A DNA stretch of 64,000 bases from Candidatus Krumholzibacteriia bacterium (GTDB lineage Bacteria > Krumholzibacteriota > Krumholzibacteriia > LZORAL124-64-63), in assembly GCA_963825035.1 (NCBI GenBank), contig CAWGRT010000007.1, forward strand, positions 7,331 to 71,330, given 5' to 3'. Shown here in pieces: positions 32,560 to 64,000 of this stretch. Within the stretch, counting starts at the first letter, position 1. The number at the start of each line of letters is the position of its first letter. The notes beneath the pieces were generated by a model, which worked only from the letters and a program-made list of their open reading frames with translations, was not told where the DNA came from and did no database searches. A program made the position numbers and the translations under genes.

Positions 32560-32647
32560 GGGATCAACTCCTTTGGTGGAATTCCAGCCTGCCGGGGGTT
32601 AGGATGCAGATCCTCCCGGCGGGTCCAAAGTAGTGCGGCTGCCCAGC

Positions 32648-40588: not shown

Positions 40589-40677
40589 GTCGGGGCCTCC
40601 CGAGTTGGTGACGGGGTCGGTGACCCCGGGAATATCGGCACGCGCGGCGGCGGGCTTGACCCCGGCCGCCGCCCCGG

Positions 40678-43381: not shown

Positions 43382-43395
43382 GGCGCGCGTCTCCT

Positions 43396-43785: not shown

Positions 43786-43802
43786 CGTCTCTCCTTGGCG
43801 CC

Positions 43803-45632: not shown

Positions 45633-45644
45633 GCTACCCCTTGC

Positions 45645-46633
45645 TCAGTCGACATCGATCCGCGCCTGGCCCGCCACGACCAGCTCCGGCTGCCCGGGTG
45701 CGGTGCGGCGCTCGCAGACGACGACGCTCTCGATCATCGTCTTGCCGTAACGCTTGAGCTCGGCCATGGTGTCGCTCAGTTCGGCGGGATGGGCGAAGCG
45801 GCCCTGGGCGTCGGCGACCAGGGCGACGGTCAGCGTGATGACGGGAAATCGCTTGACGCGGCCGTCGCGGCCCTTCGACTTCGAGGTAGCCCCGCGCCAC
45901 GTCCTCGGCGTCGTGCAGCCCCGACACGCCGGAGTCGAACTCCTCGACGATGTGGCGGCCCAGGTCGTCCGCGTGGTCGCTGGCGGTGACCACGACGAAG
46001 TCGTCGCCGCCCACGTGCCCCACGAAGTCCCGGGCCGAGCCGTACTTCTGGGTGCAGCCCACCAGCACGCCCGCCAGGAAGGAGATGGCCCGGTCCCCCC
46101 GCGAGTAGCCGTACTGGTCGTTGAAGCTCTTGAAGCGGTCGATGTCGATGTACATGCAGCCGAAATCCGCGGCCGCCGGCGATGCGCTCGGTCAGCTCGC
46201 GCTCGATGGCGCGGTTGCCCGGCAGGCCGGTCAGCGGGTTGGCCTCCCGCTCGCGGCGCGTGGCCTCCAGCAGGTTCTTGACCCGCAGCAGCAGCTCGTC
46301 CTGGTTGAAGGGCTTGATGACGTAGTCGTTGGCGCCGCCCTTCAGGCCCCGGACCCGGTCCTCCACCTCGCCCTTGGCCGTCAGCAGGATCACCGGCAGC
46401 CGGGACGTCTCGAAACCGGCACGGATGATCTCCAGCACGGAAAATCCATCCATGCGCGGCATCATCACGTCCAGCAGGACCAGATCCGGCTGGAAACTGG
46501 TCACGGCCTTCCAGGCCTCTTCGCCGTCGGCGACGAGATGCACCTGGAAACCCTCCTGTTCCAGCAGGAACTGCAGGATTCGCCGGATGTGCGGCTCGTC
46601 GTCGGCGACGAGAATGCGGGATGTGTCCGCCAT
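45645..46633 (-). CDS. Response regulator-diguanylate cyclase (REC-GGDEF) with GGDDF signature, about 3 frame breaks
   Basis: ATG 46633. MADTSRILVADDEPHIRRILQF..DLVLLDVMMPRMDG..ANDYVIKPF. NPLTGLPGNRAIERELTERI. YIDIDRFKSFNDQYGYSRGDRAI...DFVGHVGGDDFVVV (GGDDF encoded at 45997-46011). Tail ITLTVALVADAQGRFAHPAELSDTMAELKRYGK. Confidence 0.8.
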
Positions 46634-46755
46634 TGTCGTCCGTTTCGTCGCGCTGCAAATTGCTCCTACGGCCCCGGCGGGTCGGGACCGTCCGTCGGCC
46701 GCGTCCGCAAAGGGACGTGCCAGGCAAGGGTTATCGGCAGGCGGCGAGAGGAACT

Positions 46756-47770
<1,015 letters not shown>

Positions 47771-47772
47771 CA

Positions 47773-49447
47773 GCGCGTCCCCCGTCACCGGCCACAGGCG
47801 CTCGCGCAGGACGGCGTCGGCGCTGGCCTCCTGTTCCATGGCCTCGAACACCGGGCCGATGGCCGCGGCGATCTCCCGCACCAGCACCGAGCGGGTGCTG
47901 CGACCGCGGGCGGCCAGCGGTGCCGGCCAGGCCGTGCACGTAGGCGCCCAGCAGGGCCGCGTCCAGGGCGGACAGCACCCTGGGCCAGCAGGCCGCCGAT
48001 CAGTCCGGTGAGCACGTCGCCCGAACCGCCGCGGGCCAGGGCGTCGTCGCCCGATCCGTTGATGAACACGCGGCCGTCGGGCGCGGCGATCACCGTGGGC
48101 GAGCCCTTGAGCATCAGCACGCAGTTCCAGCGGGCGGCCAGCTCGGCCGCCAGCTCGCGGGCGCTTCGGCGTTCGACCTCGGCCGAGGTGCGGCCGATCA
48201 GCCGGGCCAGCTCGCCGGCGTGGGGCGTCAGCACCACCTGGTCGTGGGCGAAGCGCGGCTCGCCCTCCAGGCGGGCGAAGGCCCCCAGGCCGTCGGCGTC
48301 CACCACGCAGGGGCGGTCCAGGCTGCGAGAGCAGGTCCACCACCCAGCGGTCGGTGGCCGGGTCGTCGCACAGGCCCGGCCCCAGCGCCACCGCCCGGCG
48401 CGCCCCCAGCAGCGTGGCCGAAGGCCTCGGTGTCCAGGGGCGCGATGGTGCCCGCCTCGGTCTCGGGCACGGCCGCGACGATGGCCTCGGGCAGCCCCAC
48501 CCGCACCGGCACCTCGAGGCTCTCGGGGACCAGCATGGTCACCAGGCCCGCGCCCGAGCGCAGCGCGCCCAGACCCGCCAGGTGGGCCGCGCCGCCGAAG
48601 GCCCGGCTGCCGGCCACCACCAGCACGGTGCCGCACTGGTACTTGTGGGCCCAGGAGCGCCGCGGCGGCAGCAGTTCCAGGCAATCGCCGCGGGTCAGCC
48701 AGTGCTCGCGGCCGGCGTGGCGGGCGCACACCGCGTCGGCGAAGCCGATGTCCGCCACCTCGATCTCGCCGGCGAAGTCGCGGCCCGGCGGCAGCAGCAG
48801 GCCCCGCTTGACCAGGCCGATGGTCAGGGTGCGGTCCGCGGCCACGGCCACCGGATCGACGCGCCCGTCGTCCCCGTCCACCCCCGAGGGGATGTCCACG
48901 GCCAGGCACGGCACGCCCGGTGTCGTTCAGGGCCCGGAACAGGTCGGGATAGGCCCCCCGCAGGGGCGGCTTGACGCCCGGTGCCGAAGACGGCGTCGAT
49001 CACCAGGTCGGTCTCGTCGGCCAGGTCGGCCGCGGTCCCGGCCCAGGCCGCGGGCGCGGGCGCGGCCACCGTGACCGCGTCCGGCAGCAGCTCCAGGTTG
49101 GCGCGGGCGTCGGGACTGAGGGCGTCGGCCGCCGCCAGCAGCAGCACCGTGACGGCCACCTCCTCCTCGGCCAGCAGGCGGGCGGCCACCAGGCCGTCGC
49201 CGCCGTTGTTGCCCTTGCCGCAGACGATCAGCACCCGCGGGGCCTCGTCCTCCGCCCCGTGGTCGTGGCCGCAGGCGCCGTCGCAGGCGTGGTCGTGGCC
49301 GTGGTCGTGGTCCTGCTCGGCCAGCATGAACAGGGCCGTCTCGGCCACCGCGGCGCCGGCCCGCTCCATCAGCTCCAGGCCCGGCACGCCGCCGGCGATG
49401 GTCTCCTTGTCGATGGCCGCCATGGCCGCTGCCGTCACCACGCGCAT
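47773..49447 (-). CDS. nnr: Bifunctional NAD(P)H-hydrate repair enzyme (YjeF_N epimerase + YjeF_C dehydratase), >=4 frame breaks; 3' end unresolved
   Basis: MRVVTAAAMAAIDKETI..LMERAG..VLIVCGKGNNGGDGLVAARLL; IDAVFGTG; AVDIPSGVD; HKYQCGTVLVVAGSRAFGGAAHLAGLGALRSGAGLV; VVDADGL..VLTPHAGELARL; VLMLKGSPTVIA..NGSGDDALARGGSGDVLTGLIGGLLAQG. No in-frame stop before the tsaD ATG in the sequence as given. Confidence 0.8.
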
Positions 49448-49450
49448 GGG

Positions 49451-50191
49451 TCAGTCCTTCCGGGAAGCAGGGCCGCCGCCCAGCCGCGCGAGCACGTCCA
49501 GCAGCTGGAGCGGATCGTCCACCACGAAGTCGGGTTCGGTCTCGTCGTCGGTCAGCTTGTCGGCGTACTGGCTGTACTTGTCGCCGTAGCGGGCGTAGAC
49601 CGTGTGCAGGCCCGCGGCGCGGCCGCCGACGATGTCCCGCTCCTTCCAGTCGCCGATCACCACGGCGCGCCCGGGCTCCACCGCCAGCTGCTCCAGGGCC
49701 ATGCGGAAGGGTTCGGGCGCGGGCTTGCGGAAGCCCGTGTCGTCGAAGGTCAACACCAGGTCGAAGGTGTGCTGCAGGCCCAGGTAGACCAGGCGCACCC
49801 AGGCCTCGAAGCGCGGGGCGTCGCTGACCACCGCCAGCTTGTAACCGTCCTTGAGCAGCCGGTTCAGCACCCGCTGGGCGTGGGGGTACAGCACCAGCGA
49901 GCCGTCGCGGGCCCGCCGGTAGGCCACCACCGCCGCGGCCAGGATGCGGTCCTCCACCCGCCCCATGACCTCCTCCAGGAACAGGTTGAACACCCGCTGG
50001 TGCTCGATGCCCCGGTCCTTGTAGACGGCGAAGATGCGCTGGGTCGCCTCGTCCTCGGGCATGTCCAGGCCCGCATCCACCATGGCCTCGGCCGCGGCCC
50101 GGATGCTGCGCTCCTTGGCGCCCATGAAATCGGTCAGGGTGTTGTCCAGGTCGAAGATGACCGCGTCGATGCCGCTGCCTGCCACGTGCAC
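49451..50191 (-). CDS. HAD-superfamily hydrolase
   Basis: Intact 246-aa ORF. AVIFDLDNTLTDF (DxD motif I), LAVVSDAP (motif II), VVIGDWKERDIVGG (motifs III/IV). Confidence 0.8.
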   Translation of the reverse strand: MHVAGSGIDAVIFDLDNTLTDFMGAKERSIRAAAEAMVDAGLDMPEDEATQRIFAVYKDRGIEHQRVFNLFLEEVMGRVEDRILAAAVVAYRRARDGSLVLYPHAQRVLNRLLKDGYKLAVVSDAPRFEAWVRLVYLGLQHTFDLVLTFDDTGFRKPAPEPFRMALEQLAVEPGRAVVIGDWKERDIVGGRAAGLHTVYARYGDKYSQYADKLTDDETEPDFVVDDPLQLLDVLARLGGGPASRKD

Positions 50192-50220
50192 ACCTTTCGT
50201 CGGGGTCCCGCGCCTTCCCT

Positions 50221-51117
50221 ATGAAACGCCCGCCGGGGCAATTGCACAACCTGCGGTTGCCTCTCGGGCCGGACGGGACGATCATGGCGGGCATGAACGA
50301 CCGACCGCCGCACCTCCCGCCCGACTCCGCACCCGGTCTGTGGCAGACCTGGGGCCACCTGCCGGTCCTGGCCCTGACCATCTTCCTGTTCATGGCCTAC
50401 CTGGTCTGCCAACTGCTGTTCTACGGCCTGACGGGCGGCCTGATGCTGCCGGTGCTGGCCGGCGCGCTCGTGGGCGTGATGCTGCCTCTGGAGCTGCTGC
50501 GGCGGCGCGGGGTGCTGATCCCCGAGGACGACCTGGGCCTGGACCGTCCCGACCGGGTGACGCTGGCCCTGGTGGTGGTGATCGCCCTGGCCTCCCTGGC
50601 GCCGGTCTCCCTCCTGGCCGAGGCGGCCCTGCGGCTGCATCCGGTGGACGCCGCCTGGGCCGCCGACTACAACGGGCACCTGCCCCGGACGGCGGGCGAG
50701 ATGATCGTGGCCGGGCTGGCGGTCCTGTTGGTGGCGCCCCTGGCCGAGGAGATCATCTTCCGGGCGTTCCTGCAGCGTCTGGCCACCGAGACCTGGGGCG
50801 TGGTGCCCGGCATCGTGGTGTCGGCCCTGGCCTTCGGCCTGCTCCACGGCGAGCCCTGGTACCTGTTCGGCCTCATCGGCGTCGGCCTGGTCCTGGGCCT
50901 GGTCTGGGCGGCCACCCGCTCCCTGACCGCCTGCTGGCTGGCCCACGCGGTGCACAACGCCGTCTCCCTGATCGCCCTGCTCCGGGGCGAGGGGGTCAGC
51001 GTGGAACCGGCGGTCTACGGCGCCTGGGACTGGGTCCTGGTGGGGGTGTCGTTGGCGGCGTTGGCGACGGCGGGGTGGGCGCTCGTGCGGCGCGGCCGCC
51101 GGGGCCGCGCCGCCTGA
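50221..51117 (+). CDS. CPBP-family intramembrane glutamic endopeptidase (CAAX protease-like)
   Basis: Intact ORF. LVAPLAEEIIFRAFLQ (EExxxR), FGLLHGE, WLAHAVHNAVS. Several TM helices. An alternative start is ATG 50284 (MAGMNDR). Confidence 0.8.
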   Translation: MKRPPGQLHNLRLPLGPDGTIMAGMNDRPPHLPPDSAPGLWQTWGHLPVLALTIFLFMAYLVCQLLFYGLTGGLMLPVLAGALVGVMLPLELLRRRGVLIPEDDLGLDRPDRVTLALVVVIALASLAPVSLLAEAALRLHPVDAAWAADYNGHLPRTAGEMIVAGLAVLLVAPLAEEIIFRAFLQRLATETWGVVPGIVVSALAFGLLHGEPWYLFGLIGVGLVLGLVWAATRSLTACWLAHAVHNAVSLIALLRGEGVSVEPAVYGAWDWVLVGVSLAALATAGWALVRRGRRGRAA

Positions 51118-51130
51118 GCGCCCGTCGCGG

Positions 51131-51319
51131 TCACCGCGCGGATTCGCGCAGGAGCTTGCCCAGGCTGATCTCCCCGTTGTCGATGCGGATGCTGAATCCG
51201 CACGCGGGGTTGTGGCAGACCCAGGCCTTGTAGCGGATGGGCGCGCCGTCGCGCCCGTAATCGGAAAGCGGCAGGAGAAGCCCCTCGCCGCACTTCTTGC
51301 AATCGGGGAACTGATCCAT
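51131..51319 (-). CDS. Small zinc-ribbon protein (62 aa)
   Basis: Intact ORF. CKKCGEG...(24 aa)...CHNPACG gives a four-Cys ribbon spacing similar to YgiT-type zinc fingers. No other domain. Confidence 0.45.
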   Translation of the reverse strand: MDQFPDCKKCGEGLLLPLSDYGRDGAPIRYKAWVCHNPACGFSIRIDNGEISLGKLLRESAR

Positions 51320-51483
51320 CGTATCTCCTCGGGCCCCACGCCCACGTCCCGTCCGGATCGATGCGGGCGCCCGCCGGCCTTGGCCGGCCCCCGCTGAGGG
51401 AAGACGCTAATCCTAGCTCAATACTAGGCAATTTCAAGCCTGATTTGCCGCCGGCCCGGCCAACCCGCCGCGACGGGTCCGGC

Positions 51484-52757
51484 TCACGTCTTCTGGGGCT
51501 TCTTCCGGGCCGCCGGGAACAGCACGTTGTTGAGGATCAGGCGGTAGCCCGGCGAGGTGGGGTAGAGATCGAGGTCCGTGGGGGGATCGCCCACCCGGTG
51601 CTGGTAGTCCTCGGGGTCGTGCCCGCCCAGGAAGGTGAACGTGCCCATGCCCCGCTTGCCGTGGATGTACTTCACCTCGTCGGTGCCGTCGACCGCCGCC
51701 AGCACGATCACCGAGCGCTTCAGGAACTTCTTCCGGTAGCCGGTGGTCTGGCCCAGGAAGCCGTTGATCACGTTCACGTGGTCCTGGGTCAGCATGGCCG
51801 GCACCGGGTCGTACTTGGCCGCGAAGGAGAAGAGGGTGAAGTAGTCGGCTTCGGGCCCGCGCATGGCGGCGTAGTTGCTGGAGTCCAGGTCCGAGAACTC
51901 GTAGACCAGCGGGTTGGTGACGAGGTTGAAGTTCTCGAAGGCGAAGGTGGCGTCGTAGTCCACCTTGCCGCGGTAGGCGGGATCCACCGGCGTGCCGTCG
52001 AAGGGCGTGTCCACGATGTCCGTGTCCAGCCAGGCCAGGGCGATGTCGATGGTGTCGGTGGCCGAGCACATGGCGAACAGGAAGCCGCCCCCCTCCACGA
52101 ACTGCCGGATGGTCAGGGCCACGGCGTGCTTCAGCTGCCACACGGTCTTGAAGCCCAGGGTCCTGGCCAGCTCCTCGTGGAAGACCTTCTGGTCCAGGTA
52201 CCAGGGCTCCTGGCCGAAGCTCGCGTAGAACTTGCCGTACTGGCCGGTGAAATCCTCGTGGTGCAGGTGCAGCCAGTCGTAGTCGTTCAGGCGGCCCGCC
52301 AGCACGTCCTGGTCGTAGATGGTGTCGTAGGGGATCTCGGCGTAGGTCAGGGCCAGGGTCACCGCGTCGTCCCAGGGCTGCAGGTTGGGCGGGCTGTAGA
52401 CCGCGATGCGGGGCGGCTTCTCCAGCAGCACCTCCTCCATGTTCTCCTGGGCGATGGTCTTGTGGATGGCCGCCACGTCGGCGTCGCCGATCTCCTCGAA
52501 CACCACGCCCATCAGCCGCGCGTCCAGGCGGGCGCGTTCGGTGTCGTCCATGAGGAAGCTCCGCCGCGGTAGTTGAGCAGCCAGTTCACCTTGGCGCCGG
52601 CCTGCAGGGTGTGGAAGGCCAGGCCGTAGGCCTTCAGGTGGTTCTTCTGGGTCAGGTCCATGGGCACCAGCAGGTAGCCGGCGGCCCGGGCGGCGGGCGC
52701 GGCCACCCCCGCCAGCAGGGCCGCCAGCGCCAGGGCGATCAGGCGGGAACGTCTCAC
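51484..52757 (-). CDS. Secreted GATase1-like protein of the family commonly auto-annotated 'asparagine synthetase B' in Bacteroidota; one frame break
   Basis: GTG 52757 overlaps the TPR gene stop (GTGA). VRRSRLIALALAALLAGVAAPAARAAGYLLVPMDLTQKNHLKAYGLAFHTLQAGAKVNWLLNYRGG / (break ~52560) / MDDTERARLDARL...PRIAVYSPPNLQPWDDAVTLALTYAEIPYD...WLHLHHEDFTGQYGKF...GGFLFAMCSATD...GGHDPEDYQHRVGDPPTDLDLYPTSPGYRLILNNVLFPAARKKPQKT. Confidence 0.7.
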
Positions 52758-54724
52758 GGCAGTCTCCTCAGGGCGTCGCGCGCGTCGTCGGCGAACAGCC
52801 AGTCCGGATACTGGACCAGCAGCTGCTCCAGCGCCGCGCGCGCGGCGGCAACGTGGCCGCCGTCCGCCAGGAGGCGGGCGCGGGCGGCCAGGGCGGCCGC
52901 CGGATAGCGGCCGTCGGGGTGGGCGGTGACGATGGTGTTCAGCAGGTCGAGGGCGGCGGCGGTGTCGGCGGCGGCCTCCTCCAGGCCCGCCAGCTCCCAG
53001 CGCGCGCGCTCCAGCAGGTGGCGCGGCTCGTCGGGATTGGCCATGGCGTCGGCCCGGAGGATGAAGGTGCGCAGGGCGTCGCGGCGCTGCGCGGGCTGGT
53101 CCACCAGGTCCCAGTAGACGCTGCGGGCGTAGAGGGCCAGCAGGGTGGGGCCGCCGTTGGGATTGTCCAGCTCCTCGGCCACGGCCAGGCCCAGGTCCAG
53201 GGCGTCGTTGGCGTAGGGGGCGGCGGGGTTGTCCATGGCCACCACGGCGAAGCGGTCGCGGGCGGTGGCGAAGCTGTCCTCGGCCAGGTCCAGGCGGGCC
53301 AGGTGGTAGTGGGCATGACCGCCGGCGTCGCGGAACTCGGGGTCGCGCCCCAGGCTGGTCAGCACGGCGCGGGCCCGGGCGGTGTCGGCCGCGGCCAGGT
53401 AGCACTCGCCCAGGGTGAGCCGCACGATGGCCACCGCCTCCAGGGGCAGGTCCAGGTCCAGCAGCATCGACTCCAGGCGCGCCGCGGCGCCGGCCGGATC
53501 GTGCAGCCGGTCGCGGGTGAAGGTGGCCAGGGCGATCTGGCCGGCGTAGAGGTCCCGGCTGGCCGGATCCAGCTGGCGCAGCACGTCCAGGGCTTCGCCG
53601 AACCGCGCCGCCGCCCGGCGGGGATCCGGGTCCAGGCGTCCCTCCTGCAGGGCGTTCAGGCCCACGCCCGCCAGCACCTGGGCGGCGCGCCGGCGCAGGG
53701 CCTGGTCCGCATTCCGGGGACCGGCCAGTTCCCGCGCCACCACCAGCAGGTAGTCGGTCGCCGCGGCCACTTGGCCCTCGTCCGTCAGCAGCGGCAGTTC
53801 CCGCTGCAGCGCCACGGCGTTCTGCAGCAGGTCCCGCCGGCCCGGGGCCGAGCCCAGGAGGGGCTCCACCACGGCGCGGGCGGCGGCGGCGTCCCCGTCG
53901 GCCAGGTGCAGATTGGCCGCCAGCACCGTCTCGGCGGGCACGGCCCCCGGCTCGGCGGCCTTGCGCGCCAGGGCCGCGACGAACCCGGCGTCGCGCCGCG
54001 GTTCGTAGGGACCGTCCAGCAGCGCGGTGCGGATCAGCGCCAGGTTGTAGGCGTTGCGCCGCAGCTCGGCGCTCAGCTCGGCGGCGGCGTCCTCCTGGCG
54101 GCCCGCCGCCAGCAGGCCCAGGGCGCGCTGCCGCGCCAGCAGGGCGGAATCGCCCAACTGCCGCCGCATGGAGTCGATGAAGGCCACCGCCAGCCGCGGC
54201 CTCTCCGTGGGACCGAAGGCCTCGGTGATCACCACGGAAGCGCCGCGGCGGTCCGGGGCGTAGACCAGGAAGCTGTCGGCCGCGGCGCGGGCCGGTTCCG
54301 TCAGCCCCTGGGCCAGCTCGGCCACCAACAGCTCGCGCCAGAGGTTGGCGTTGCGGGGCTGGTCGCGCAGGGCCTCGCGGCAGAGGTCGGCGGCCTGGGC
54401 GTGGTCGCCCTTCAGGTCGGCCAGGCGGATGCGCCGCGGCAGCAGTTCCCGCGTCAGCAGCGACTGGCCGGCCAGCTCGTTGATGAGGGCCTCGGCCCGG
54501 CTGACGTTGCCCACCGCCAGCAGCCGGTCCACGTCCATCAGGCGGCGACGCTGGACCAGCAGGTTCACGGGCGGATGGCCCGGCGGGGTGCGGGGCAGCT
54601 GCGGCCGGGGCAGCCGCATCTCCTGGGGCGGCTGCCGCTCCTGGCCGGCGTCGCCGCCGGTCTGGGCCCGGGCGGCGCCGCCGGCCACGGCCAGCAGCAG
54701 GAGCATCGTCAGGACGCGGCTCAC
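52754..54724 (-). CDS. Secreted TPR/helical-repeat protein (656 aa, intact)
   Basis: Signal peptide MSRVLTMLLLLAVAGGAARAQ. Ala/Leu/Arg-rich helical repeats throughout, e.g. AHYHLARLDLAEDSFATARDRFAVVAMDNPAAPYANDAL. GTG 54724 overlaps the DUF4175 stop (GTGA). Confidence 0.65.
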   Translation of the reverse strand: MSRVLTMLLLLAVAGGAARAQTGGDAGQERQPPQEMRLPRPQLPRTPPGHPPVNLLVQRRRLMDVDRLLAVGNVSRAEALINELAGQSLLTRELLPRRIRLADLKGDHAQAADLCREALRDQPRNANLWRELLVAELAQGLTEPARAAADSFLVYAPDRRGASVVITEAFGPTERPRLAVAFIDSMRRQLGDSALLARQRALGLLAAGRQEDAAAELSAELRRNAYNLALIRTALLDGPYEPRRDAGFVAALARKAAEPGAVPAETVLAANLHLADGDAAAARAVVEPLLGSAPGRRDLLQNAVALQRELPLLTDEGQVAAATDYLLVVARELAGPRNADQALRRRAAQVLAGVGLNALQEGRLDPDPRRAAARFGEALDVLRQLDPASRDLYAGQIALATFTRDRLHDPAGAAARLESMLLDLDLPLEAVAIVRLTLGECYLAAADTARARAVLTSLGRDPEFRDAGGHAHYHLARLDLAEDSFATARDRFAVVAMDNPAAPYANDALDLGLAVAEELDNPNGGPTLLALYARSVYWDLVDQPAQRRDALRTFILRADAMANPDEPRHLLERARWELAGLEEAAADTAAALDLLNTIVTAHPDGRYPAAALAARARLLADGGHVAAARAALEQLLVQYPDWLFADDARDALRRLP

Positions 54725-57700
54725 GGCACGTCCCCCGTCCCCGGACCCGATACCGGCGGCGGATCCAGGCGCCGCAGGCTGTCCAGGCCGGCGAAGTAGC
54801 GGCGGACCAGGTCCCGGTACTCGAGGGGCGCCTTCTCCAGGGCTTGGTAGCGCAGGCGGGACCGCTGCTGCTCGGGGGCGCCGGCCACCGGTCCGTCCAG
54901 CCCGTTCTCGCCGAAGAGGCGGTCCGCGGTGCGGCTCTCGCGGCGGTTGCTGTAGTCCCGGCGCCGCGCCGCGTTGCGGGCGTCCAGCATCCGCGAGAGG
55001 ATGCGCTCCTGGCGCACCAGCGTCTGCTCGTCCACGAGGCCGCCGCCCAGGTCCTTGCCGATGCTCTCCAGGTCGTCGGCCATGGCGCCCAGGTCGCCCA
55101 GCAGCCGCTCACCGTCGGGACGGACCCGTTCCTGTTCCTCCAGTTCGCGCACCCGCGCGGCCTGCTCGCCCTGCTCCTGGCCCAGGCGCTGCATCTGCGA
55201 GCGGACCTTCTGGCTCAGCCCGCGGTCGGCCAGCATCTGCCGCAGCTCGTCGGTCACGCCGTTCAGGCGCGCCTGCTCCCGGGCCAGGTCCTGCAGCTGC
55301 TGGGCCGCGTCCGACGGCTGGGACGACGACTGGCCGCCCCCCGAGCCCTGGGCGTTCATGTTGGCCTCGGTCAGCAGCCCGATGATGGTGCGGTTGGTCT
55401 GGGCCAGGCTCTCGCGGGTGTGGCGCTGGGCCACGGCGGCCTGGCCCGCCTCCAGGGCCCGCACGCCCTCGCCCATCTCCTCGATCACCCCGTCCAGCTT
55501 CTCCAGCAGCTTGATGATGCGTTGGGGCGATTCGTCCATGAGCTTGGCCAGGTTGTCGCGCACGCTGATCACCGCGTTCTCCAGCCGGTGCTGGCGACGG
55601 GTCAGGTCGGTGCTGCGCACGTCCCGCAGGCGGGACGGCACCTGGTCGGCGATGGTCTCCTGCCGGTCCGAGACCGCCAGCAGGTCCGCCGCCAGGCCGC
55701 GCAGGGAACTGACCTGGTTCATCTGCATGGCCGCCTGCATGGCCTGCTGGGTCTGCAGCAGCACGTGATAGAGGCTGCCCAGGTCGCGCATGGCCTGTTC
55801 CTGCAACTTGGCGGCGGTCTGGGGATCCAGCTGGGCGAGCTGCTGCGCCGCCTGGTCCATGCTGTTCTGCTGCATGCGCTTCTCCAGGTCCTGGAGCGCC
55901 TGCTGGAGCTGTTCGGCGGCCTGCTGGTCGCCGGGCGATTGCTGCCCGTCCTGCTGCTTCTGCTTCATCTGCTCGACGGCCTCGGCCAGGCGGTCGCGCA
56001 GGTCCTCCAGTTCGCGCGCCAGGGCTTCCTGGCGCCGGGCCAGCTCCCCGGGATCCGGAGCCGCCGCGTCGCGCTCGCCCGGATCCGACTCGCCCGGCTT
56101 GGCCTGATCGCCCTGTTGCTGGTCGCCCTGTTGCTGGTCGCCCTGTTGCTTGTCGCCTTGCTTCTGCTCGCCTTGCTTCTGCTCGCCCTGCTGCTGGTCG
56201 CCCTGCTGTTGTTCGCCCTGCGTCTGCTCGCCGTCCTGCTGTTGGGCCAGGTCGCGGCTCTGGTCGGCCAGCTCCTGCTGGCGGCGCAGCATCTGCTCCA
56301 GCAGCGAGGTCATGCTCTCCATCTGCTGCTCGCGGGCCATGCGGTCCATCATGGACAGGGCCGCGTCCAGGCGCCGGGCCAGGTCCTTCTGGGCGCGGGC
56401 GGCGTCCTGGAAGGCCCGGGTCAGGTCCTGGGGATCCACCTGGTCGCCCTGCTCCGCCAGCTTGCGCAGCAGCTCCGCCGACTGCCGGTCCGCCCCCTGC
56501 TCCAGGAGGGCGGCCACCTCGTCGGCCCGCTCCAGCTGCTCGCGCGAGGTCAGCTGGCCCGAGGCCAGGTCCTCCAGCTGCTGCTGCAGCTGGTCGGCGA
56601 TGCGGGAGAGTTCGTTCTGGAGGGTGGCCTGGCGGCGGACGGCCTCCTCCATCTCCTGCTGGCGGCCCCAGTCCGGGACCGGATTCTTCAGCAGTTCCCG
56701 GGTCAGGCGGTCCAGGTCCGCGTCCAGTTCGCGGCCGCGGCGGCGGGCCTCGACCAGCTCGGAGCGGCGATCCTCCTGGGCCTCGTCCTTCTGGGCCAGC
56801 ACGTCGGAGGGAGAGGGGGCCTGCAGGCGCAGCACCCGCGACCGGCCCACGCCCGCCGGTCCGGGCCGGCGATTGTCCACCGCCTCGGCCACGAGTTCGA
56901 GGGCGTCGCCCGGCACCAGCCGCAGCCGGCCCACCTCCACCTCGATCCCCACCCGCGCCCGCAGGGGCAGGTCGTGACCGTCCAGGGGCGTGAGCCGGGC
57001 CCGCAGCACGCCGTCGCCCAGGGGGTGCTCGCTCCAGGTCCCGGGCTCAGCCAGGGCCAGGGCGCCGCCGGACCAGTCGCCGTCGCCGCCGGCGCGGCCC
57101 AGCAGGCGCAGCTCGTCCAGGCCGTAGTCGTCGGCGGCATCCAGCACCAGATTGAGCGTGCCCGCCAGGGGCAGCAGGCCGTCGTCGTCGGGGCGCTGCA
57201 GGGCCACCGCCGGCGCCTGGTCGGCGGCCGCGGCGATCTCGTAGCGCACCGGCGCCGCATTCTCCAGGCCCCAGACGTCCCGGACGTGCACCCGGAAGGC
57301 CAGGTCGCGGTCCACCGCCAGCCCGCCGGCCACGACCGCGCCGTCCACGCTGAGCGCCGTCGAATCGTCGTCCGTCACCAGGGTCGCCGTCCGCAGGTCG
57401 GCGTTGGCGCGTCCCCGCAGGGCCACGCGGCTGCCCGCCGGCACCTCGATCCAGGAGGGCAGGCGGTCCAGGGTGCGGGGCTCGACCCGCGTGTAGGCGG
57501 GCGGCGTCACCACCGCCGCCAGTTCCGTCAGCAGGGGATGGTCGCGCACCGTCAGCTGCCGCGACCGCGAGACGATGGTGCCCCGCCGGAAGCGCCAGCT
57601 CAGGTCCTCGCGCACGTCGTCCAGGCGGGCGCTCCAGACGCGGGCGGGCTCCTGCCCCCAGTTCCGTTCCAGCCGCGCACCCACCGGCTGCCACAGGCCC

Positions 57701-58341
57701 GCGCCCCGGCGCACCTCGCAGACGGCGGCGCCGTCGCCGCCGGCCAGGTCCAGGGCCTGGAGATCCACCGTCGATCCCGCCACCACCCAGGACTCGGCGG
57801 GCAGGGTCAGGATGCCCGCCGTCGGTGTGGGCGGCGCCGCCGTCCACGGCGCGGCCAGGCGGCCGCCGCCGCGGCGCAGGGTGTCCGGAGCCAGGACGAC
57901 CAGGACGGCCGTCGCGGCCACCGTCGCCAGCACCGCCGCCAGGTGGGCGCGGCGCCAGGGCACCGTCACCACGTCGGCCGGGCCGAGGTGTGCCAGGTGC
58001 CCGGCGGCCCTTTCCCGCACGCGGCGCCGCAGTTCGGCGCGGACGCCGGTGCCGTCGTCCCAGCGGTCCGGCCGCCGCAGCGATTCCTCCGCGGCCACCA
58101 GCAGGTTGGCGTGGGCGCCCCGCGCCTCCAGGCGCCGCACCAGGTCCCCGGTGCCCGCCAGGCCGCGCAGGGGGCGCAGCAGCCCTACCGTCGCGAGGGT
58201 CGCCAGCAGCGTCGCCAGCGTCACCGTCAGCCCCCAGCACGAGGACAGGGACGGTGCGCCGCTGCCGCCCACGGCCCAGACCGCCAGCAGCACCGCGCCG
58301 CCGCCCCACCCCAGCAGGGCCGCCAGGCCGTAGCCGGCCAC
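54721..58341 (-). CDS. DUF4175-family membrane protein with long Gln/Glu-rich coiled-coil region (>=1206 aa)
   Basis: Frame intact over 3.6 kb. N-terminal TM pair (GYGLAALLGWGGGAVLLAVWAV; LTVTLATLLATLATVGLL). Beta-rich middle. Coiled-coil/low-complexity Q-rich centre. C-terminus ILSRMLDARNAARRRDYSNRRESRTADRLF...PLEYRDLVRRYFAGL. The true start is probably ATG 58412 (MTRERHDRP..), joined by one frame break: ..STRQLDGLLRRTRSR precedes the GTG in frame. Confidence 0.7.
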   Translation of the reverse strand: MAGYGLAALLGWGGGAVLLAVWAVGGSGAPSLSSCWGLTVTLATLLATLATVGLLRPLRGLAGTGDLVRRLEARGAHANLLVAAEESLRRPDRWDDGTGVRAELRRRVRERAAGHLAHLGPADVVTVPWRRAHLAAVLATVAATAVLVVLAPDTLRRGGGRLAAPWTAAPPTPTAGILTLPAESWVVAGSTVDLQALDLAGGDGAAVCEVRRGAGLWQPVGARLERNWGQEPARVWSARLDDVREDLSWRFRRGTIVSRSRQLTVRDHPLLTELAAVVTPPAYTRVEPRTLDRLPSWIEVPAGSRVALRGRANADLRTATLVTDDDSTALSVDGAVVAGGLAVDRDLAFRVHVRDVWGLENAAPVRYEIAAAADQAPAVALQRPDDDGLLPLAGTLNLVLDAADDYGLDELRLLGRAGGDGDWSGGALALAEPGTWSEHPLGDGVLRARLTPLDGHDLPLRARVGIEVEVGRLRLVPGDALELVAEAVDNRRPGPAGVGRSRVLRLQAPSPSDVLAQKDEAQEDRRSELVEARRRGRELDADLDRLTRELLKNPVPDWGRQQEMEEAVRRQATLQNELSRIADQLQQQLEDLASGQLTSREQLERADEVAALLEQGADRQSAELLRKLAEQGDQVDPQDLTRAFQDAARAQKDLARRLDAALSMMDRMAREQQMESMTSLLEQMLRRQQELADQSRDLAQQQDGEQTQGEQQQGDQQQGEQKQGEQKQGDKQQGDQQQGDQQQGDQAKPGESDPGERDAAAPDPGELARRQEALARELEDLRDRLAEAVEQMKQKQQDGQQSPGDQQAAEQLQQALQDLEKRMQQNSMDQAAQQLAQLDPQTAAKLQEQAMRDLGSLYHVLLQTQQAMQAAMQMNQVSSLRGLAADLLAVSDRQETIADQVPSRLRDVRSTDLTRRQHRLENAVISVRDNLAKLMDESPQRIIKLLEKLDGVIEEMGEGVRALEAGQAAVAQRHTRESLAQTNRTIIGLLTEANMNAQGSGGGQSSSQPSDAAQQLQDLAREQARLNGVTDELRQMLADRGLSQKVRSQMQRLGQEQGEQAARVRELEEQERVRPDGERLLGDLGAMADDLESIGKDLGGGLVDEQTLVRQERILSRMLDARNAARRRDYSNRRESRTADRLFGENGLDGPVAGAPEQQRSRLRYQALEKAPLEYRDLVRRYFAGLDSLRRLDPPPVSGPGTGDVP
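56107..56241 (-). repeat. Coding tandem repeat, 15-bp unit x 9 (pentapeptide Q-Q-G-[DE]-Q array)
   Basis: Plus-strand units: atcgccctgttgctg gtcgccctgttgctg gtcgccctgttgctt gtcgccttgcttctg ctcgccttgcttctg ctcgccctgctgctg gtcgccctgctgttg ttcgccctgcgtctg ctcgccgtcctgctg. They encode DGEQTQGEQQQGDQQQGEQKQGEQKQGDKQQGDQQQGDQQQGDQ in the DUF4175 gene. Confidence 0.85.
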
Positions 58342-58432
58342 ACGGCTGCGGGTACGGCGCAGGAGGCCGTCCAGCTGTCGGGTCGAGGTCGGTCGTGTCG
58401 CTCGCGGGTCATGATCGGCTCTTCGCGTCGGG

Positions 58433-59138
58433 TCAGGGTTGCGTCAGCGCGTACATCAGGATGTTGACGGCCATCTTGGCGGCGGCCTCGCGCACTTCGC
58501 GCCGGGTCGCCGTGGACGTCGGGATCCTCCAGCCCGTCGCCGATGTCCGAGGACCAGGTGTACAGGATCACCAGCCGTCCGTTCCGGGTGACCCCGAAGG
58601 CCTGGGCCGGGTCGCCGTCGTGGCGATGGATCTTCGGCAGCCCCGGCAGTCGTAGTACGCCCGGAACACCGGATGGTTCGAGGGCAGGGGCGCCAGCTTC
58701 TCGTCGGGATAGAGACGCGCCACCATCTCCCGGAAGGACTTGTCCATGCCGTAGTTGTCGTCGGCGTAGAGGAAGCCGCCCGCGTCGAGGTAGCGGCGCA
58801 GCTCGGCCAGCTCGTCGCTCGTCGAGCAGCACGCGCCCGTGGCCCGAGAGGTAGAGGAACGGGTAGCGGTACAGGTCCTCGCTGTCGAGGGTGACCACCG
58901 CGTCGGTCGTCGGCGGTGCGGATGCCGGTGCGCTGCCGGAACAGCTCCAGCCAGTTGGGCAGGCTGCTGGGGTCGCAGTACCAGTCGCCGCCGCCGTCGT
59001 AGTGCAGGCGGGCGATCCGGACCTCCGGCTCGTCGGACGCCGGATCGGCCCCGGCCGCGGTCGCCAGGCCACCGCCGCCGCCAGGGCGCGCCGCCGCCAG
59101 GAGCGTCGGGACGCGGGATACGCCGGACGGGATCTCAC
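58433..59138 (-). CDS. DUF4159-family protein (GATase1-like fold family), >=3 frame breaks
   Basis: GTG 59138 overlaps the kinase stop (GTGA at 59135-59138). Pieces: EVRIARLHYDGGGDWYCDPSSLPNWLELFRQRTGI / AVVTLDSEDLYRYPFLYLSGHG / LPKIHRHDGDPAQAFGVTRNGRLVILYTWSSDIGDGLEDPDVHGDP / REAAAKMAVNILMYALTQP, then TGA at 58433-58435. Confidence 0.7.
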
Positions 59139-62100
59139 GGATGCGCTCTCCTTCCGCCGCGGGCCGGGAGCCCGGCGCAGGGTCAGTTCGGCCACGGCCC
59201 CGGGGCCGTCGTCGCGGTTGGCCAGGGTGATGCGGCCCCCCATGCGGTCGGCCAGGTTCCGGCAGATGGCCAGCCCCAGCCCCGTGCCCGCGCTCTTGGT
59301 GGAAAAATACGGGTCGAACAGACGATCGGCCACATCGTCGGGGATGCCCGCCGCCGTCGTCGGCCCAGACCAGGGTGACGCGGTGCCGGCGCCACCCGCC
59401 AGCCGACGCCACGACGGTGGGCCGGCCGGCCGGGCGCCCGGCGTCCAGGGAGTTCTGCATGAGATTGCCCAGGATCTTGCGCAGCGAGTCCGCGTCCGCC
59501 AGCACCGGCGGCACGGCGGCGGATCGATCGCCACCGAGGTCCCGCGCCGCCGCCGTCCGGTCGCCGGCGTAGGCGGCCGCCAGGTCGGCCACCGCTGCGC
59601 CAGGTCCACCGGCGCGGTGCTCCAGGTCGCCGGGCCGGCCCAGCAGGCTGAACTCGGCGGCGATGCTGCGCAGCAGTTCCACCTGGGCCAGCACCCGCTG
59701 CGACCGTCTCCTCACGATGCGGTCCAGATGCGGATGCTCGGTCCTGCCAGGCCTTGGCGCAGCAGCTGCACCGAGAGCTGGATCGGGCGTCAGCGGGATT
59801 CTTGATCTCGTGGGCCACCTGGCGCGCCAGCTCGGCGTTGATGGCCAGCTTCTGGGCCTCCAGGAACCCGGTGATGTCCTCGAACACCAGCATGGTGTCG
59901 CGGCGGCCGCCCGGCAGTTCCAGGGGCGCCACCGCCCCGCGCAGGGTGCGCCGGCCGTCGGCGCTGCGCAGCTGCCCGGCGGCATGGTCCCGGTCGCGGT
60001 CCGGGTCTCCGTCCTGGAGCTGCTCGCGCAGGCGCACGGCCGCCTGCTCCGCCGACACGTCGGGGTGGAACCCGGCCACGATCTGCCGCCCGGCCGGGTT
60101 GAGCACCGCCACGCGCCCGTCGGCGTCGATCACCGCCACGCCCACCGTGACCCGGTCCAGCACCGTGGCCAGGAAGCGCTCGCGGGCGGCCAGACGGTCC
60201 AGGGCGCTGCGCAGCTCGCCGCGCATGCGGCCGAAGGAGTCGGCCAGGCGGCCCACCTCGTCGCGGCCCGCCTCGGGCAGGGGCGCGTCGTAGTCGCCGG
60301 CGGCCAGCGAGCGGCTGGCGGCCATCAGCAGCCGCACCGGCCGGAAGATGTTCCAGGACATGAGCACCGCCAGCAGCAGCGCCGTCAGCAGGATCAGGTT
60401 CGCCAGGCCCGCCAGGAACAGGGCCGTGGTCCGCCGCTGGTCGGCGTACTCGCGCTCGCGGTCCGGGAAGGTCACCGTCAGCAGGGCCGGCACCGCCCGG
60501 GGCTGCAGCCCGCCGCCGGCGGGCTCGACGAACGCCGGCAGGGGCTGGCACCCGGTCAGGGCAAAGGGGCGGCCCGCCGCGGCCAGCACCCCCGGCGCCG
60601 ACGGATGGTCCAGCATGGGCACCAGCAGGTCCGGTTCCGCCAGGGGCGGGATGCGCCCCGCGAACACCGAGCCCGGATGGCTGGCCAGCATGGGCCGACC
60701 GTCGAAGCGGAGGGTGATCTGCCCCTGCACCAGGTCGGCCAGGGAGTACACCAGCCAGGAATCGAGCCGCTGCCGGTAGAAGAAGAAGCCGCCCGTGCCG
60801 CCGGCGTCCTGGTCGCGGGGGGCGGGCTGGGCGCCCGTGTCCAGGATCCCGCCCAGGTCCAGGGGGATGACGGTGCCCACGTACAGGTCCTCGCCGTCCT
60901 TCTGCACCACCAGGGGCGCGCGGCGCGCGGCCGCCAGCAGCCCGGCCGCTTCGGCGGGTTCGAGGTTGCCCAGGGTCTCGTCCAGCAGCAGCGTGCCGTC
61001 GCTCTTGAACACCATGCCCTGCTGGTTGTCCAGGGGCCCGGCCGGGCGGGCCCCGGTGAGCTGGCCCTCCAGCATCTCGGCGATGTACTCGCTGCCGGCC
61101 AGGGTGCGGGCCTGTTCGGTCAGCACGTTGCGGAGCTGGTCCACGGCCTGCAGCAGACCGGCCCGGGCGCGGGCGGCGGCCTCGCCGGCGATGCGCTCGT
61201 GGGTCACCCGATCCACCGAGGCCCCCACCAGCACCAGCAGGACCAGCCCCAGCACCAGGTAGCCGGCGAGGAAGCGCTCCTGGAAGCCCGCGCGCCAGGG
61301 GCCGGCCGAGATGTCGTCCCCGAGCCGCCGTTCCACCGCACGCGTCGCCTGCACGCCCGCGGCCGCCAGCAGCAGCAGAGCCAGATTCAGCAGCAGAAGC
61401 CGCGACAGGTCCAGCAGCTCGGCCCCGGCGCCGGGGACGCTCACCCCCAGGACGAAGCCCTCGCCCGCCGAACGCTGGGCCGCCGGCGGCAGGGCCTTCC
61501 ACAGGCAGAGCCAGCGCCGACCGCCCACCTCCAGCAGCGGCCCAGGACCGGTCACCCCGGCGCAGGGCCGCGGCGGCTTCTTCGCCGCCCGGATCCGGGA
61601 AGCCGTAGTCGCCGGCGTCCAGCCAGCCGCTGTCGTCGGCGTGCAGCAGCAGAATGGGCCGGTCGATCTCCGAACGGGGCCGGTAGCCGCCCGGCTCCAG
61701 GTCCGGATCCCCGGTCAGCTCGGACATGAGGGTGTTGATGCGCCAGCTCCGGAGGGGGATCTCCACGTGGAGCCAGCCGGCGCCCCCGCGGCGGGCGATC
61801 TCGCCCACGAGCACCTCCTCGGCGCCGCCGGCATAGAGGCGGCGTTCGCTGCGGAAGTAGAGGTCGGGGTCCTCCGCACCGAATTCGCCCGCCGCGCCCT
61901 GCCACGGGTTGCGGTCGGCCACCTCGTAGCTGAAGTCGCGCATGAAGCCGGTGGCGTGCAGGGCCAGGCTGTGGTTGTCCGCGTCGAGGATCTCCACCAG
62001 GCAGGGGATGCCCAGGTCGCGCAGGGGCGAGTTCCGCCACAGGGCCCAGGCCGGCTCCTGGCGCCACAGTTCCGTGGGCCCGCTCGGCGCGGTCCCGGTG

Positions 62101-63870
62101 TCGTCCTGGCTCCACATGTCCTCCAGGACCTCGCCCAGGAGGAAGCGCTGCCAATCCCCGTCGGCCTCGGCGATCACCTGGGCCTTGCCCTCGAGCCAGC
62201 TGCGCTCGCCGACGGCGTAGACCTGGCGCAGCACGCCGTGGTTCCACACGGTCACCAGGATCATGACCGCGGGCCAGACCAGGCGCCGCCGCAGCCCCGC
62301 GCGCTGGGCCAGACCCGGCGCCACCACCCACAGGCCGGCCGTCACCAGGGCCGCCGCCAGCCACGGCCCGTGGGCCGCCCCCGCGGCAATCGCCGTCAGG
62401 GCGCCCGCCGCCGCGGCCGCCAGCAGGCCTCCGCCCAGCCAGGCGGCGCGCCGCTCCCGGGAAGGCCAGCCGCCGCCGGCCACCGCCCGCACCGCCACCA
62501 CCGCCAGGGAGAGGGAGATGAGCATGAGCGCCACGTGCAGGACCCAGAAGGACACGTGCCCCAGGGACACGCCCTCCCCCGCCAGCCGCGGGTTGGCATT
62601 GACGGCCAGCAGCGTCGCCACGCCCCGCAGGCCCAGCAGCACGCCCCCGGCCCCCAGGCCGAAGAGGAGGCCGGCCACCCGGCCCCGCGCCCGCGGGACG
62701 GCGGCGCCGGCCGGGCCGGCCTTCTGGAGGATCTGCCAGACGGTGACCGCCAGCAGCAGGGCCGTCAGCAGCGCATCCGCCGACGAGGCGAACCAACCGC
62801 CCAGGAAGGGCGTGGCGAAATAGGCGGGGTCCACGAGGCTGGCCAGGGTCCCGGGCCGCGCCGGGTGCTCGGCGGCGGGCCAGGCCGCCGCCAGCCACTG
62901 GTGGAACTCGACGGCCGCCAGGAGGCTGCGCCCCAGCCACAGGGGCGCCAGCCACAGGAGGCCGGGCGCGCACACGCGGGTGAATCCCGCCGCCACCAGG
63001 ATCCAGGCGACCAGCAGGGCCACCATCCGCCGAGCCCGTGTGGTGCCGCCCGTGCCGCGGTCCGGGGGCGACGCCGTCAGCAGGGCCACCCGCAGCCCGG
63101 TCTCCTCCGGACCCAGGGATGCCTGGCGGGCGCTGGCCGGCGCGCCGTCCGTCAGCGCGGGCGCCACCTCGGGCCAGAGGCGCCGCCAGCCCTCGCCGCC
63201 CAGGACCACCTGACATTCCAACCGCTGGTCGCCCAGGGGGAAGAACCGGCGGTAGACCAGTTCGCCCCGCGCCGGGACGATCTGCGCCGTGTCCCCCGGC
63301 GCCGGGACGGCCAGGGGCTGTGCGCCCCCGCTCCAGGCCACCCGCTGGCCGCCGTCCCAGACCACCAGGGCCAGGGGCAGGGCATCGTCGACGTGGCCGT
63401 GGGCCGACCAGCGGGCCGGCCAGGCCGCCAGGGCCCGCACACGCTGCCCTCCGTCGGCGGGGAGCAGTTCGGTCGTCACGGACGCGGCGGCGGTGGTGAG
63501 GCGTGCCTCCAGGTGACCCAGGGCCTCGACCGCGGCCGCGGCCTGCCGGGCCTCGGCCCGGGCGCCCACCGCCAGCTGATCACCGCCGCCACCCACCAGC
63601 CCCAACACGGCCACGGCCAGAAGGCACGGACACGCCCACCAAGGTCAGGGCGCGCCACAGGCGCCGGCTGAGGCTGCGTCGGCTGTCGAGGGGACAGAAG
63701 GCCAGGGTCACCGCCAGCAGCAGGGTCAAGGCCAGGAACAGGCCGCGGGCCGGCAGGATCCCCGCCTCGGGGCCGGGGGTCGAGGCCGCCGCCAGGGCGA
63801 GCAGGATGCCCTGCCCCACGAGGCAGCCCGCACCCACCAGCGGCAGGGCCCGCGCCCGCGTGAAGGTCAT
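59135..63870 (-). CDS. Giant (~1570 aa) polytopic NtrY-like sensor histidine kinase (multi-TM N-terminal region - periplasmic-like segments - HAMP - PAS - HisKA - HATPase_c), >=5 frame breaks
   Basis: ATG 63870 preceded by GGGGGA. Many TM helices, e.g. LLVAWILVAAGF, LLTALLLAVTVWQIL, FWVLHVALMLISLSLAVVAV. HAMP: FRPVRLLMAASRSLAAGDYDAPLPEAGRDEVGRLADSFGRM. PAS: RFLATVLDRVTVGVAVIDADGRVAVLNPAG. H-box: ELARQVAHEIKNP (continues in another frame). LRKILGNLMQNSLDAG; DRLFDPYFSTKSAGTGLGLAICRNLADRMGGRITLANR. Frame breaks near 63620, 61560, 59800, 59600 and 59400. Confidence 0.75.
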
Positions 63871-63880
63871 CCGTGTCCCC

Positions 63881-64000
63881 CTAGCCGATGGTGGTGAGCT
63901 CCGTCAGGCGCCAGGTCTCGCCCTGCCGGCTCAGCACGAACACGAGCCTGGTCTCGCGCTGCGCCCCCGAGTCCGGCGCCTGGTGCGTCCACTGGGCCAT
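63881..64000 (-). CDS. Hypothetical protein, C-terminal 39 codons (probably continues beyond window end)
   Basis: Own translation of the minus strand: (M)AQWTHQAPDSGAQRETRLVFVLSRQGETWRLTELTTIG, then TAG at 63881-63883, 10 nt upstream of the kinase start. It is not clear whether the ATG at 63998-64000 is the real start. Confidence 0.3.
   Translation of the reverse strand: MAQWTHQAPDSGAQRETRLVFVLSRQGETWRLTELTTIG

Follow-up and report, generated by a model that had tools for sequence, protein, structure and literature searches.

What system is encoded by the large gene cluster at positions 51484-63870 of the 64,000-nucleotide (nt) stretch of Candidatus Krumholzibacteriia DNA studied here (contig CAWGRT010000007.1 of assembly GCA_963825035.1, positions 7,331 to 71,330; the whole stretch is called the window), and does it belong to a known envelope system? 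Five minus-strand genes run there in the same direction, coding for a giant sensor kinase, a DUF4159 protein, a DUF4175 protein, a tetratricopeptide repeat (TPR) protein and a last protein that we call p422, an order and approximate position that agree with the original prediction made from the letters alone. The module is a real, uncharacterised and kinase-coupled variant of the Bat-like envelope gene set that lacks MoxR locally. We estimate at roughly 55% the probability that this locus represents, in Krumholzibacteriota, a widespread and so far uncharacterised envelope set, DUF4159-DUF4175-TPR-p422, with the complex and the kinase link proposed below. The features of the module and its borders are the following (aa, amino acids).

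63881..64000, minus strand: 3' end of a gene for a small exported protein (tblastn; L002/L006 orthologs match 64000-63884, the last 39 codons)
59135..63870, minus strand: giant polytopic sensor histidine kinase, about 1,575 aa when repaired (frame plot, translations, tblastn with intact orthologs)
58433..59138, minus strand: DUF4159 protein, about 233 aa, signal peptide, GTG start at 59138 (Pfam PF13709)
54721..58412, minus strand: DUF4175 protein, about 1,230 aa, ATG start at 58412 (Pfam PF13779)
56104..56241, minus strand: tandem repeat of 15 nt in 9.2 copies, coding for QQGDQ-type pentapeptides in the helical region of the DUF4175 protein (Tandem Repeats Finder)
52754..54724, minus strand: TPR protein, 656 aa, signal peptide, intact (open reading frame; Pfam TPR_19/TPR_14)
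51484..52757, minus strand: p422, exported, about 424 aa, GTG start at 52757 overlapping the TPR stop (tblastn in two frames; intact in L091)
51410..51437, minus strand: sigma-70-like promoter match TTGAAA-16-TAGGAT, within the 164 nt that separate p422 from the 62-aa gene
51131..51319, minus strand: 62-aa CxxC...CxxxxC zinc-ribbon-like protein (tblastn, 88.7% identity to L002)

Gene order and its conservation across genomes

Intact syntenic orthologs of the module are found in related loci, which speaks for the reading given above. In L002-L005 the unit is larger, as six genes are followed by the 62-aa gene: an exported protein of about 160 aa, the kinase (1,550-1,583 aa), DUF4159 (220-233 aa), DUF4175 (about 1,210-1,230 aa), TPR (650-674 aa), p422 (415-422 aa) and the 62-aa CxxC...CxxxxC protein, beyond which relatives carry an Rce1-like gene on the opposite strand, HAD, YjeF, TsaD, a response regulator with a GGDEF domain (RR-GGDEF) and a histidine kinase with an HD domain. 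The five-gene extent first proposed is thus right in its order and too short at both ends, as it missed the small exported gene upstream and the 62-aa gene at 51131-51319. The small exported gene, which is cut by the end of the window, stops (TAG, 63881-63883) 10 nt ahead of the kinase ATG; its product, about 160 aa long in relatives, has a weak DUF4440/NTF2-like match (Pfam DUF4440, E=0.0015, L002 ortholog), and its family (cluster C7) precedes the kinase in 24 loci. The 62-aa gene lies downstream in about 20 loci and follows the module in many loci of Krumholzibacteriota type; its product has no match in Pfam or NCBIfam. It probably has its own promoter, the match at 51410-51437 being the sole one in 50900-64000. 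The promoter-like stretch is AT-rich, which is unusual within a sequence of 73% GC.

The junctions had been described as three 4-nt GTGA stop/start overlaps and one gap of about 20 nt. The overlaps at 54721-54724 (DUF4175/TPR) and 52754-52757 (TPR/p422, preceded by GAGGAG) join correct frames, and a 4-nt overlap of the form [AGT]TGA between the DUF4175 stop and the TPR start recurs in 49 of 69 loci, across phyla. At 59135-59138 a GTG is found with a good AAGGAG Shine-Dalgarno sequence; the last verified kinase frame stops short of the TGA there, and the GTG frame enters DUF4159 only after further repair. Since the kinase frame as sequenced misses the TGA, this third overlap between kinase and DUF4159 is plausible only. 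The gap is as described, with the DUF4159 stop (TGA, 58433-58435) followed by 20 nt and then by the DUF4175 ATG at 58412. A scan of 50900-64000 gave no promoter-like or terminator-like site within the module block. The stoichiometric co-production that had also been proposed was drawn from the gene overlaps only.

The neighbourhood census that had been proposed as a check was carried out with an alignment of DUF4159 as query against the species representatives of GTDB and gave at least 575 relatives, of which the best 80 loci were analysed by tblastn and clustering of open reading frames (ORFs). DUF4175 lies directly downstream of DUF4159 in 64 of 71 loci and p422 5-8 kb downstream in 50 of 56, usually with a TPR gene of about 590-700 aa between DUF4175 and p422. 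Krumholzibacteriota, Gemmatimonadota and Latescibacterota are among the groups in which this DUF4159-DUF4175-TPR-p422 core recurs. A kinase gene directly upstream was found in 29 of 62 loci; by taxonomic label, the counts are 14/15 in Krumholzibacteriota, 6/6 in metagenome-assembled genomes (MAGs) labelled 'Fibrobacteraceae', 0/15 in Gemmatimonadota and 0/5 in Poribacteria. The direct coupling to a kinase that had been proposed is lineage-specific, being seen only in loci of Krumholzibacteriota type, and the core is widespread without it. In Krumholzibacteriota-type loci the small exported protein and the kinase directly precede the core on the same strand with short or overlapping junctions, and the adjacency persists where transmitter identity is down to 32-35% (L042-L047, L058, L074).

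Some observations on individual lineages can be added. The MAGs named 'uncultured Fibrobacteraceae' or 'Fibrobacter sp.' (L015, L017, L022, L026, L029-L031, L034) carry the full Krumholzibacteriota-type module with DUF4159 66-88% identical, which suggests that their taxonomic labels are doubtful. In Gemmatimonadota (L041, L048, L049, L062, L065 and others) the core has thioredoxin and RsmI upstream, a DinG-like helicase downstream and ClpB nearby, with neither a kinase nor MoxR beside it. Two clusters of the census, 'C0+305' and 'C2+898', turned out to be RsmI and a DinG-like helicase; they are not paralogs but neighbours merged by single linkage. Cluster C36, suspected from its size to be MoxR, had no Pfam match.

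The uneven distribution of the kinase raises an alternative, namely that two independent units (small protein plus kinase, and DUF4159-DUF4175-TPR-p422) are neighbours by inherited synteny in one phylum, with no coupling between them. Cores that lack the kinase are indeed found in Gemmatimonadota (kinase in 0/15), Poribacteria (0/5), Eisenibacteria, Fidelibacterota and other groups; in L032 and L033 two unrelated genes, including CstA, separate the kinase from DUF4159; and in relatives kinase and DUF4159 overlap by 4 nt at one extreme and lie 43 nt apart at the other. However, adjacency is kept in all 29 Krumholzibacteriota-type loci despite identities down to about 33% in the transmitter and about 27% in DUF4175, stop/start overlaps are present in L001, L005 and L058, and no promoter-like or terminator-like site lies between kinase and DUF4159 in the window. 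We consider two uncoupled units unlikely.

Frame breaks and their cause

Are the genes of the window functional? The minus-strand coding signal is unbroken from about 63870 to 51484 but hops between frames, as seen by a plot of G+C at third codon positions (GC3) and by three-frame translations. Single-base indels break four of the five module genes, the wholly intact TPR gene being the exception. The ORFs listed for the window are 51484-52551, 54721-58341, 59183-61555 and 59790-63614; tblastn with intact orthologs spreads the kinase over five or more frame pieces (about 63870-63625, 63623-61535, 61534-59797, 59796-59350 and 59348-59151, the 3' end and stop being uncertain), DUF4159 into at least three, with at least four frameshifts, and p422 into two. 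The DUF4175 gene is intact save for its first ten codons or so, where two extra C between 58412 and about 58385 shift the frame, so that the ORF as given begins at 58341; its N-terminus was reconstructed from the window DNA against orthologs. In total, at least 12 breaks fall in the kinase, DUF4159 and p422 genes and at the N-terminus of DUF4175, and the original prediction had silently read across about a dozen frameshifts.

The breaks are single-base changes in short C/G runs, such as CCG read as CCCG, or one base lost beside a G-to-A change in a G run. Two extra C at about 59795-59780 interrupt the H-box of the kinase, AHEIKNPLTPIQLS (AATCC[C]GCTGACGCC[C]GATC), and the p422 gene lacks one base at about 52557. 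L091, a contig from an independent Logan assembly of this organism that is 532/535 identical, has GGCGGGGCGTTC where the window has GGCGGAGC-TTC, and the extra base repairs the p422 frame, which is intact there; the same 3.9-kb contig holds an exact copy of the TPR gene. Similar breaks are found downstream of the module in YjeF (at least four), in the essential TsaD (one) and in the RR-GGDEF gene (two). Over 45585-64000 there is about one single-base indel per kb, for example at 59780-59795, 58385-58412, 52557, 47570 and 48381-48944.

The frameshifts are assembly errors and not pseudogenisation, because they also hit housekeeping genes and because p422 is back in frame in L091. A decaying pseudogene cluster with real frameshifts would have the dozen or more breaks across four genes in its favour, but it is extremely improbable: TsaD, YjeF and RR-GGDEF suffer the same type of break, the breaks fall in short C/G runs, GC3 codon signal and amino-acid identity are undiminished past each shift, and the frame of p422 is whole in the nearly identical L091. 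Programmed frameshifting was also considered and rejected, as housekeeping genes are likewise broken and the L091 frame is intact. One practical consequence is that protein sets predicted from this MAG would be fragmented.

The four core proteins

As originally described, all four products downstream of the kinase carry predicted export signals or membrane anchors, seen as signal-peptide-like N-termini or transmembrane segments. The family assignments of the first three were confirmed by hidden Markov models (HMMs) of Pfam. The frameshift-repaired DUF4159 protein matches PF13709 with 197.3 bits (cutoff 25.9) over positions 1-202 of the 202 of the profile; its homologs are 66-91% identical, and the orthologs were already annotated with PF13709. 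A DUF4159 profile also matches PDB 4i66, an unannotated structure, with E=3.6e-23. The DUF4175 protein matches PF13779 with 45.8 bits (cutoff 27.3), the match covering only positions 185-318 of the 825 of the profile; the ORF is 100% identical to P0001, relatives were already annotated with PF13779, and the nearest named relatives belong to Candidatus Krumholzibacteria MAGs. The TPR protein is recognised by TPR_19 and TPR_14.

The architecture of DUF4175 comprises three N-terminal transmembrane segments, tandem beta-sandwich domains of immunoglobulin/macroglobulin-like (Ig/MG-like) type and a Gln/Glu-rich all-helical region of about 650 aa. The AlphaFold2 (AF2) model of P0003, a 68%-identical homolog, has a predicted local distance difference test (pLDDT) score of 79.5; besides transmembrane helices, it has tandem Ig/MG-like sandwiches over about 330 residues and long helices over about 650. 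A Foldseek search with it returned generic Ig/MG-domain arrays only. The QQGDQ repeat within the helical region is likely a length-variable spacer.

The last protein, p422, is the best conserved product, with 85% identity to L002 as compared to about 59% for DUF4175. In line with what had been noted of its family, some NCBI records name it 'asparagine synthetase B'. As an asparagine synthetase it was rejected, neither an Ntn glutaminase (GATase_2-type) domain nor an Asn_synthase domain being detected. Neither p422 nor its intact ortholog matches any Pfam or NCBIfam family at E<=0.01, and the HMM check proposed for the GATase1-like family thus assigned none; structure prediction, also proposed, gave GATase1-like proteins as top Foldseek matches. 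Across phyla, 112 columns of p422 are at least 97% conserved, including FAMC229SATD, GGH378DPED and WLHLHHEDFTGQ. C229, H378, D379 and P380 are invariant even in relatives of 35-45% identity, whereas E381 is not fully so.

In the AF2 model of p422 (pLDDT 65.5), C229 sits between a strand (226-230) and a helix (233-242), and the GGHDPE motif follows a strand. All top Foldseek matches are GATase1-like, namely 2gk3, the middle domain of GH42, 3soz, SpuA and 3fij, with E-values from 8e-5 to 1e-3, those of 2gk3 and 3soz spanning 8e-5 to 7e-4, and low TM-scores (0.24-0.42); 2gk3, 3soz and 3rht are solved sequence relatives of PF07090-type proteins. At the level of profiles, hhalign of p422 gave a probability of 0.2% against PF07090-type proteins and of 18% against DUF4159, the latter sharing the YxxxGGFLxA motif only, in which DUF4159 has an Asp at the position of the p422 Cys. 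The fold of p422 is, by its model, probably GATase1-like, and the protein may be an exported Cys-His hydrolase or transferase.

Among 1.84 billion cluster representatives searched, 909 relatives of p422 were found. Relatives of about 500 aa (35-45% identity) bear a C-terminal Por_Secre_tail of the type IX secretion system (T9SS) and retain the Cys and the His (P0299, P0301, P0304, P0307, P0326; loci L089 5745-7271 and L090 1454-2947); they are stand-alone genes in contigs of 30-35% GC. In the forms without this C-terminal domain the C-terminus is instead a conserved basic tail, ...LFPAA(K/R)KKxxKT, perhaps another kind of sorting signal.

The sensor kinase and its signalling context

Hydropathy gives the kinase about 11-13 hydrophobic segments, among which lie three large non-membrane stretches. 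Its C-terminal part follows the order HAMP, PAS, HisKA, HATPase_c, in agreement with the HAMP-PAS kinase assignment made at the outset: HAMP was matched by Pfam in a window piece, and PAS_4 (weak, E=5e-4), HisKA and HATPase_c on the intact L002 ortholog. The best NCBIfam match of the L002 kinase is AtoS, with 141.6 bits, below the 646-bit cutoff. The N-terminal 1,150 aa or so have no Pfam or NCBIfam match.

The statement that no cognate response regulator lies near the kinase was too strong, as four REC-domain genes are present in the window, among them RR-GGDEF, a stand-alone REC and a GAF...REC protein; what holds is that none is adjacent to the kinase or NtrX-like. A sigma-54 activator is also lacking, the GAFTGA and ESGTGKE motifs being absent from every frame of the window. 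The RR-GGDEF gene at about 45.6-46.6 kb is syntenic in all relatives examined. It belongs to a signalling cluster (40214-46633) downstream of the module that is conserved in relatives and several members of which are frameshifted:

about 45585-46633: RR-GGDEF
43803-45632: HisKA-HATPase-HD_5 kinase
43396-43785: stand-alone REC
41650-43224: further HisKA/HATPase kinase
40214-41716: GAF...REC / HD_5 pieces

Relation to Bat/MoxR loci

Is the cluster then a Bat/MoxR locus? Bat loci (MoxR-DUF58-BatA/BatB (VWA)-BatC (TPR)-BatD), known from B. fragilis, Leptospira, Borrelia and Francisella, are those of which it has been said that the 'function remains elusive' (PMC3557215). Of their features, the window has an exported TPR protein and membrane-anchored partners, and has no MoxR, DUF58 or BatA_N/VWA. 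The absence first claimed for the 64 kb was borne out for MoxR by tblastn with two seeds and by the lack of a MoxR-type Walker A motif in every frame, and for DUF58, BatA and VWA by tblastn with DUF58, BatA and VWA+GATase1_like seeds; a scan for the DxSxSM motif of the metal ion-dependent adhesion site (MIDAS) gave none within a plausible window gene. MoxR, DUF58 and VWA are also absent within +/-10 kb of the orthologous loci L001-L005, and in the census MoxR and DUF58 occur within 10 kb in just 2 of 80 loci (L050, L067).

Through these two loci and a third one, the set remains connected with loci of Bat/MoxR type. L067 has the order DUF4159-DUF4175-TPR-p422-MoxR-DUF58, its MoxR being an AAA_3 protein (218 bits); L050 has MoxR-DUF58-BatA-GATase1_like-DUF4159; and L086, found via a distant DUF4175 homolog, has DUF58-BatA-DUF4159-GATase1_like-...-DUF4175-TPR. 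In Poribacteria, a VWA+GATase1_like protein is encoded directly upstream of DUF4159. L067, L050 and L086 thus place the four-gene core within the family of Bat/MoxR neighbourhoods, though usually with no ATPase nearby, and the core set corresponds to the non-ATPase, non-VWA components of Bat/MoxR-type loci.

The same evidence could be taken one step further. The four proteins might depend on MoxR, DUF58 and a BatA-type VWA protein encoded elsewhere in the genome. The cluster would then be no more than the distal half of a known system, split off from the rest, and the kinase beside it would be secondary. The position of MoxR and DUF58 directly after p422 in L067, the arrangements in L050 and L086 and the Poribacterial VWA+GATase1_like protein all fit such a split system, but no such genes are present in the 64-kb window and they lie within +/-10 kb in 2 of 80 loci only. 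We regard it as a serious possibility that nonetheless falls short of an even chance, and one compatible with the preferred reading of a Krumholzibacteriota version of the core set.

Proposed mechanism and its weight

According to the preferred reading, six genes would form one transcription unit. DUF4175 would be a scaffold anchored in the inner membrane and reaching into the periplasm, on which the TPR protein and DUF4159, a GATase1-like protein taken to be non-catalytic, could assemble. Catalysis would fall to p422 alone, as a Cys-His amide hydrolase or transferase whose substrate lies in the envelope or at the surface. The state of the envelope or membrane may be sensed by the kinase, possibly together with the small exported protein as a co-sensor; the kinase would be co-produced with the complex and signal to a non-adjacent regulator.

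Several points weigh against this reading. The core occurs without any kinase in other phyla; in L032 and L033 one of the two genes that part the kinase from DUF4159 is on the opposite strand; and no cognate regulator for the kinase was identified among the window genes. The model of p422 is moderate, its C-terminal region with the His having pLDDT <50 in addition to the low TM-scores, and the PF07090 HMM, hhalign and a PDB sequence search with a p422 profile all gave nothing significant. The census spans the 80 closest of the 575 or more relatives.

A bolder version may be set beside it, in which the core is an autonomous, MoxR-independent envelope machine conserved across many phyla related to the Fibrobacteres-Chlorobi-Bacteroidetes (FCB) group, p422 is its catalytic heart and founds a new family of exported Cys-His enzymes of GATase1 fold that is displayed at the surface through T9SS in some lineages, and the machine is hard-wired to the giant kinase in Krumholzibacteriota, where it would be a signal-coupled system for envelope remodelling. 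We offer this as speculation and consider it unlikely.

As had been supposed, no paper found describes the unit: DUF4159 is mentioned in one (the Pfam database paper) and DUF4175 in four, none of them on this locus. DUF4159, DUF4175 and the 'AsnB'-named family are large and strongly conserved with essentially no literature, and the function of the Bat/MoxR envelope locus has been elusive for 25 years. The system, present in at least 575 species-level genomes, now offers three testable handles: a cross-phylum four-gene core with MoxR within 10 kb in 2/80 loci, one member that looks like the sole enzyme (Cys/His pair, T9SS-sorted variants) and one phylum in which the core is coupled to a kinase. 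In addition, the propagating misannotation 'asparagine synthetase B' is corrected.

Other genes in the window

Further genes of the window include the following, and Rfam and tRNA scans of the 64 kb gave no match.

5675-6964: GlgC-like nucleotidyltransferase
6970-9616: PAS-GAF kinase plus REC
13509-16010: ClC channel with CBS/TrkA_C
15554-18031: M16 peptidase
26498-28453: multihaem cytochrome
30477-32598: 2-oxoacid:ferredoxin oxidoreductase subunits

Comparison with known systems

With kinases of AtoS/NtrY/ZraS type, the module kinase shares the HAMP-PAS-HisKA-HATPase_c transmitter and the HEIKNPLTPI H-box. It differs from them in its score, 141.6 against an equivalog cutoff of 646, and in an N-terminal extension of about 1,150 residues that contains the 11-13 hydrophobic segments and matches nothing in Pfam. 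Moreover, the window has no sigma-54 regulator of NtrX/AtoC type.

p422 can be compared with two groups. Among the PF07090 GATase1_like proteins (3rht, STM3548 2gk3, STM1381 3soz), 2gk3 and 3soz are the best structural matches of its model, whereas a sequence-level match is lacking. The VWA+GATase1_like proteins of Poribacteria and L086 hold a place equivalent to that of p422, being GATase1-like partners of DUF4159; unlike them, p422 has no VWA or transmembrane part, is Sec-exported and has invariant motifs of its own.

[quoted passage not shown] The cmd operon starts with MoxR and DUF58 and, in that part of the account, has no kinase, no p422 and no separate TPR gene. Its last two genes we take to code for membrane proteins of BatA_N/DUF4159 type and of DUF4175 (TIGR02302) type.

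Bat/MoxR loci have in common with the present cluster membrane-anchored or exported proteins, including TPR proteins, that are thought to form an envelope complex whose function is unresolved (PMC3557215, PMC5700661), and DUF4159, DUF4175 and GATase1-like genes adjoin DUF58, BatA or MoxR in L050, L067 and L086. In contrast to these loci, no MoxR, DUF58, BatA_N or VWA gene is found here, or within 10 kb in 78 of 80 related loci. The cluster instead begins with the genes for the small exported protein and the giant kinase, and its GATase1-like protein belongs to a family of its own, p422, in which a Cys/His pair is conserved.

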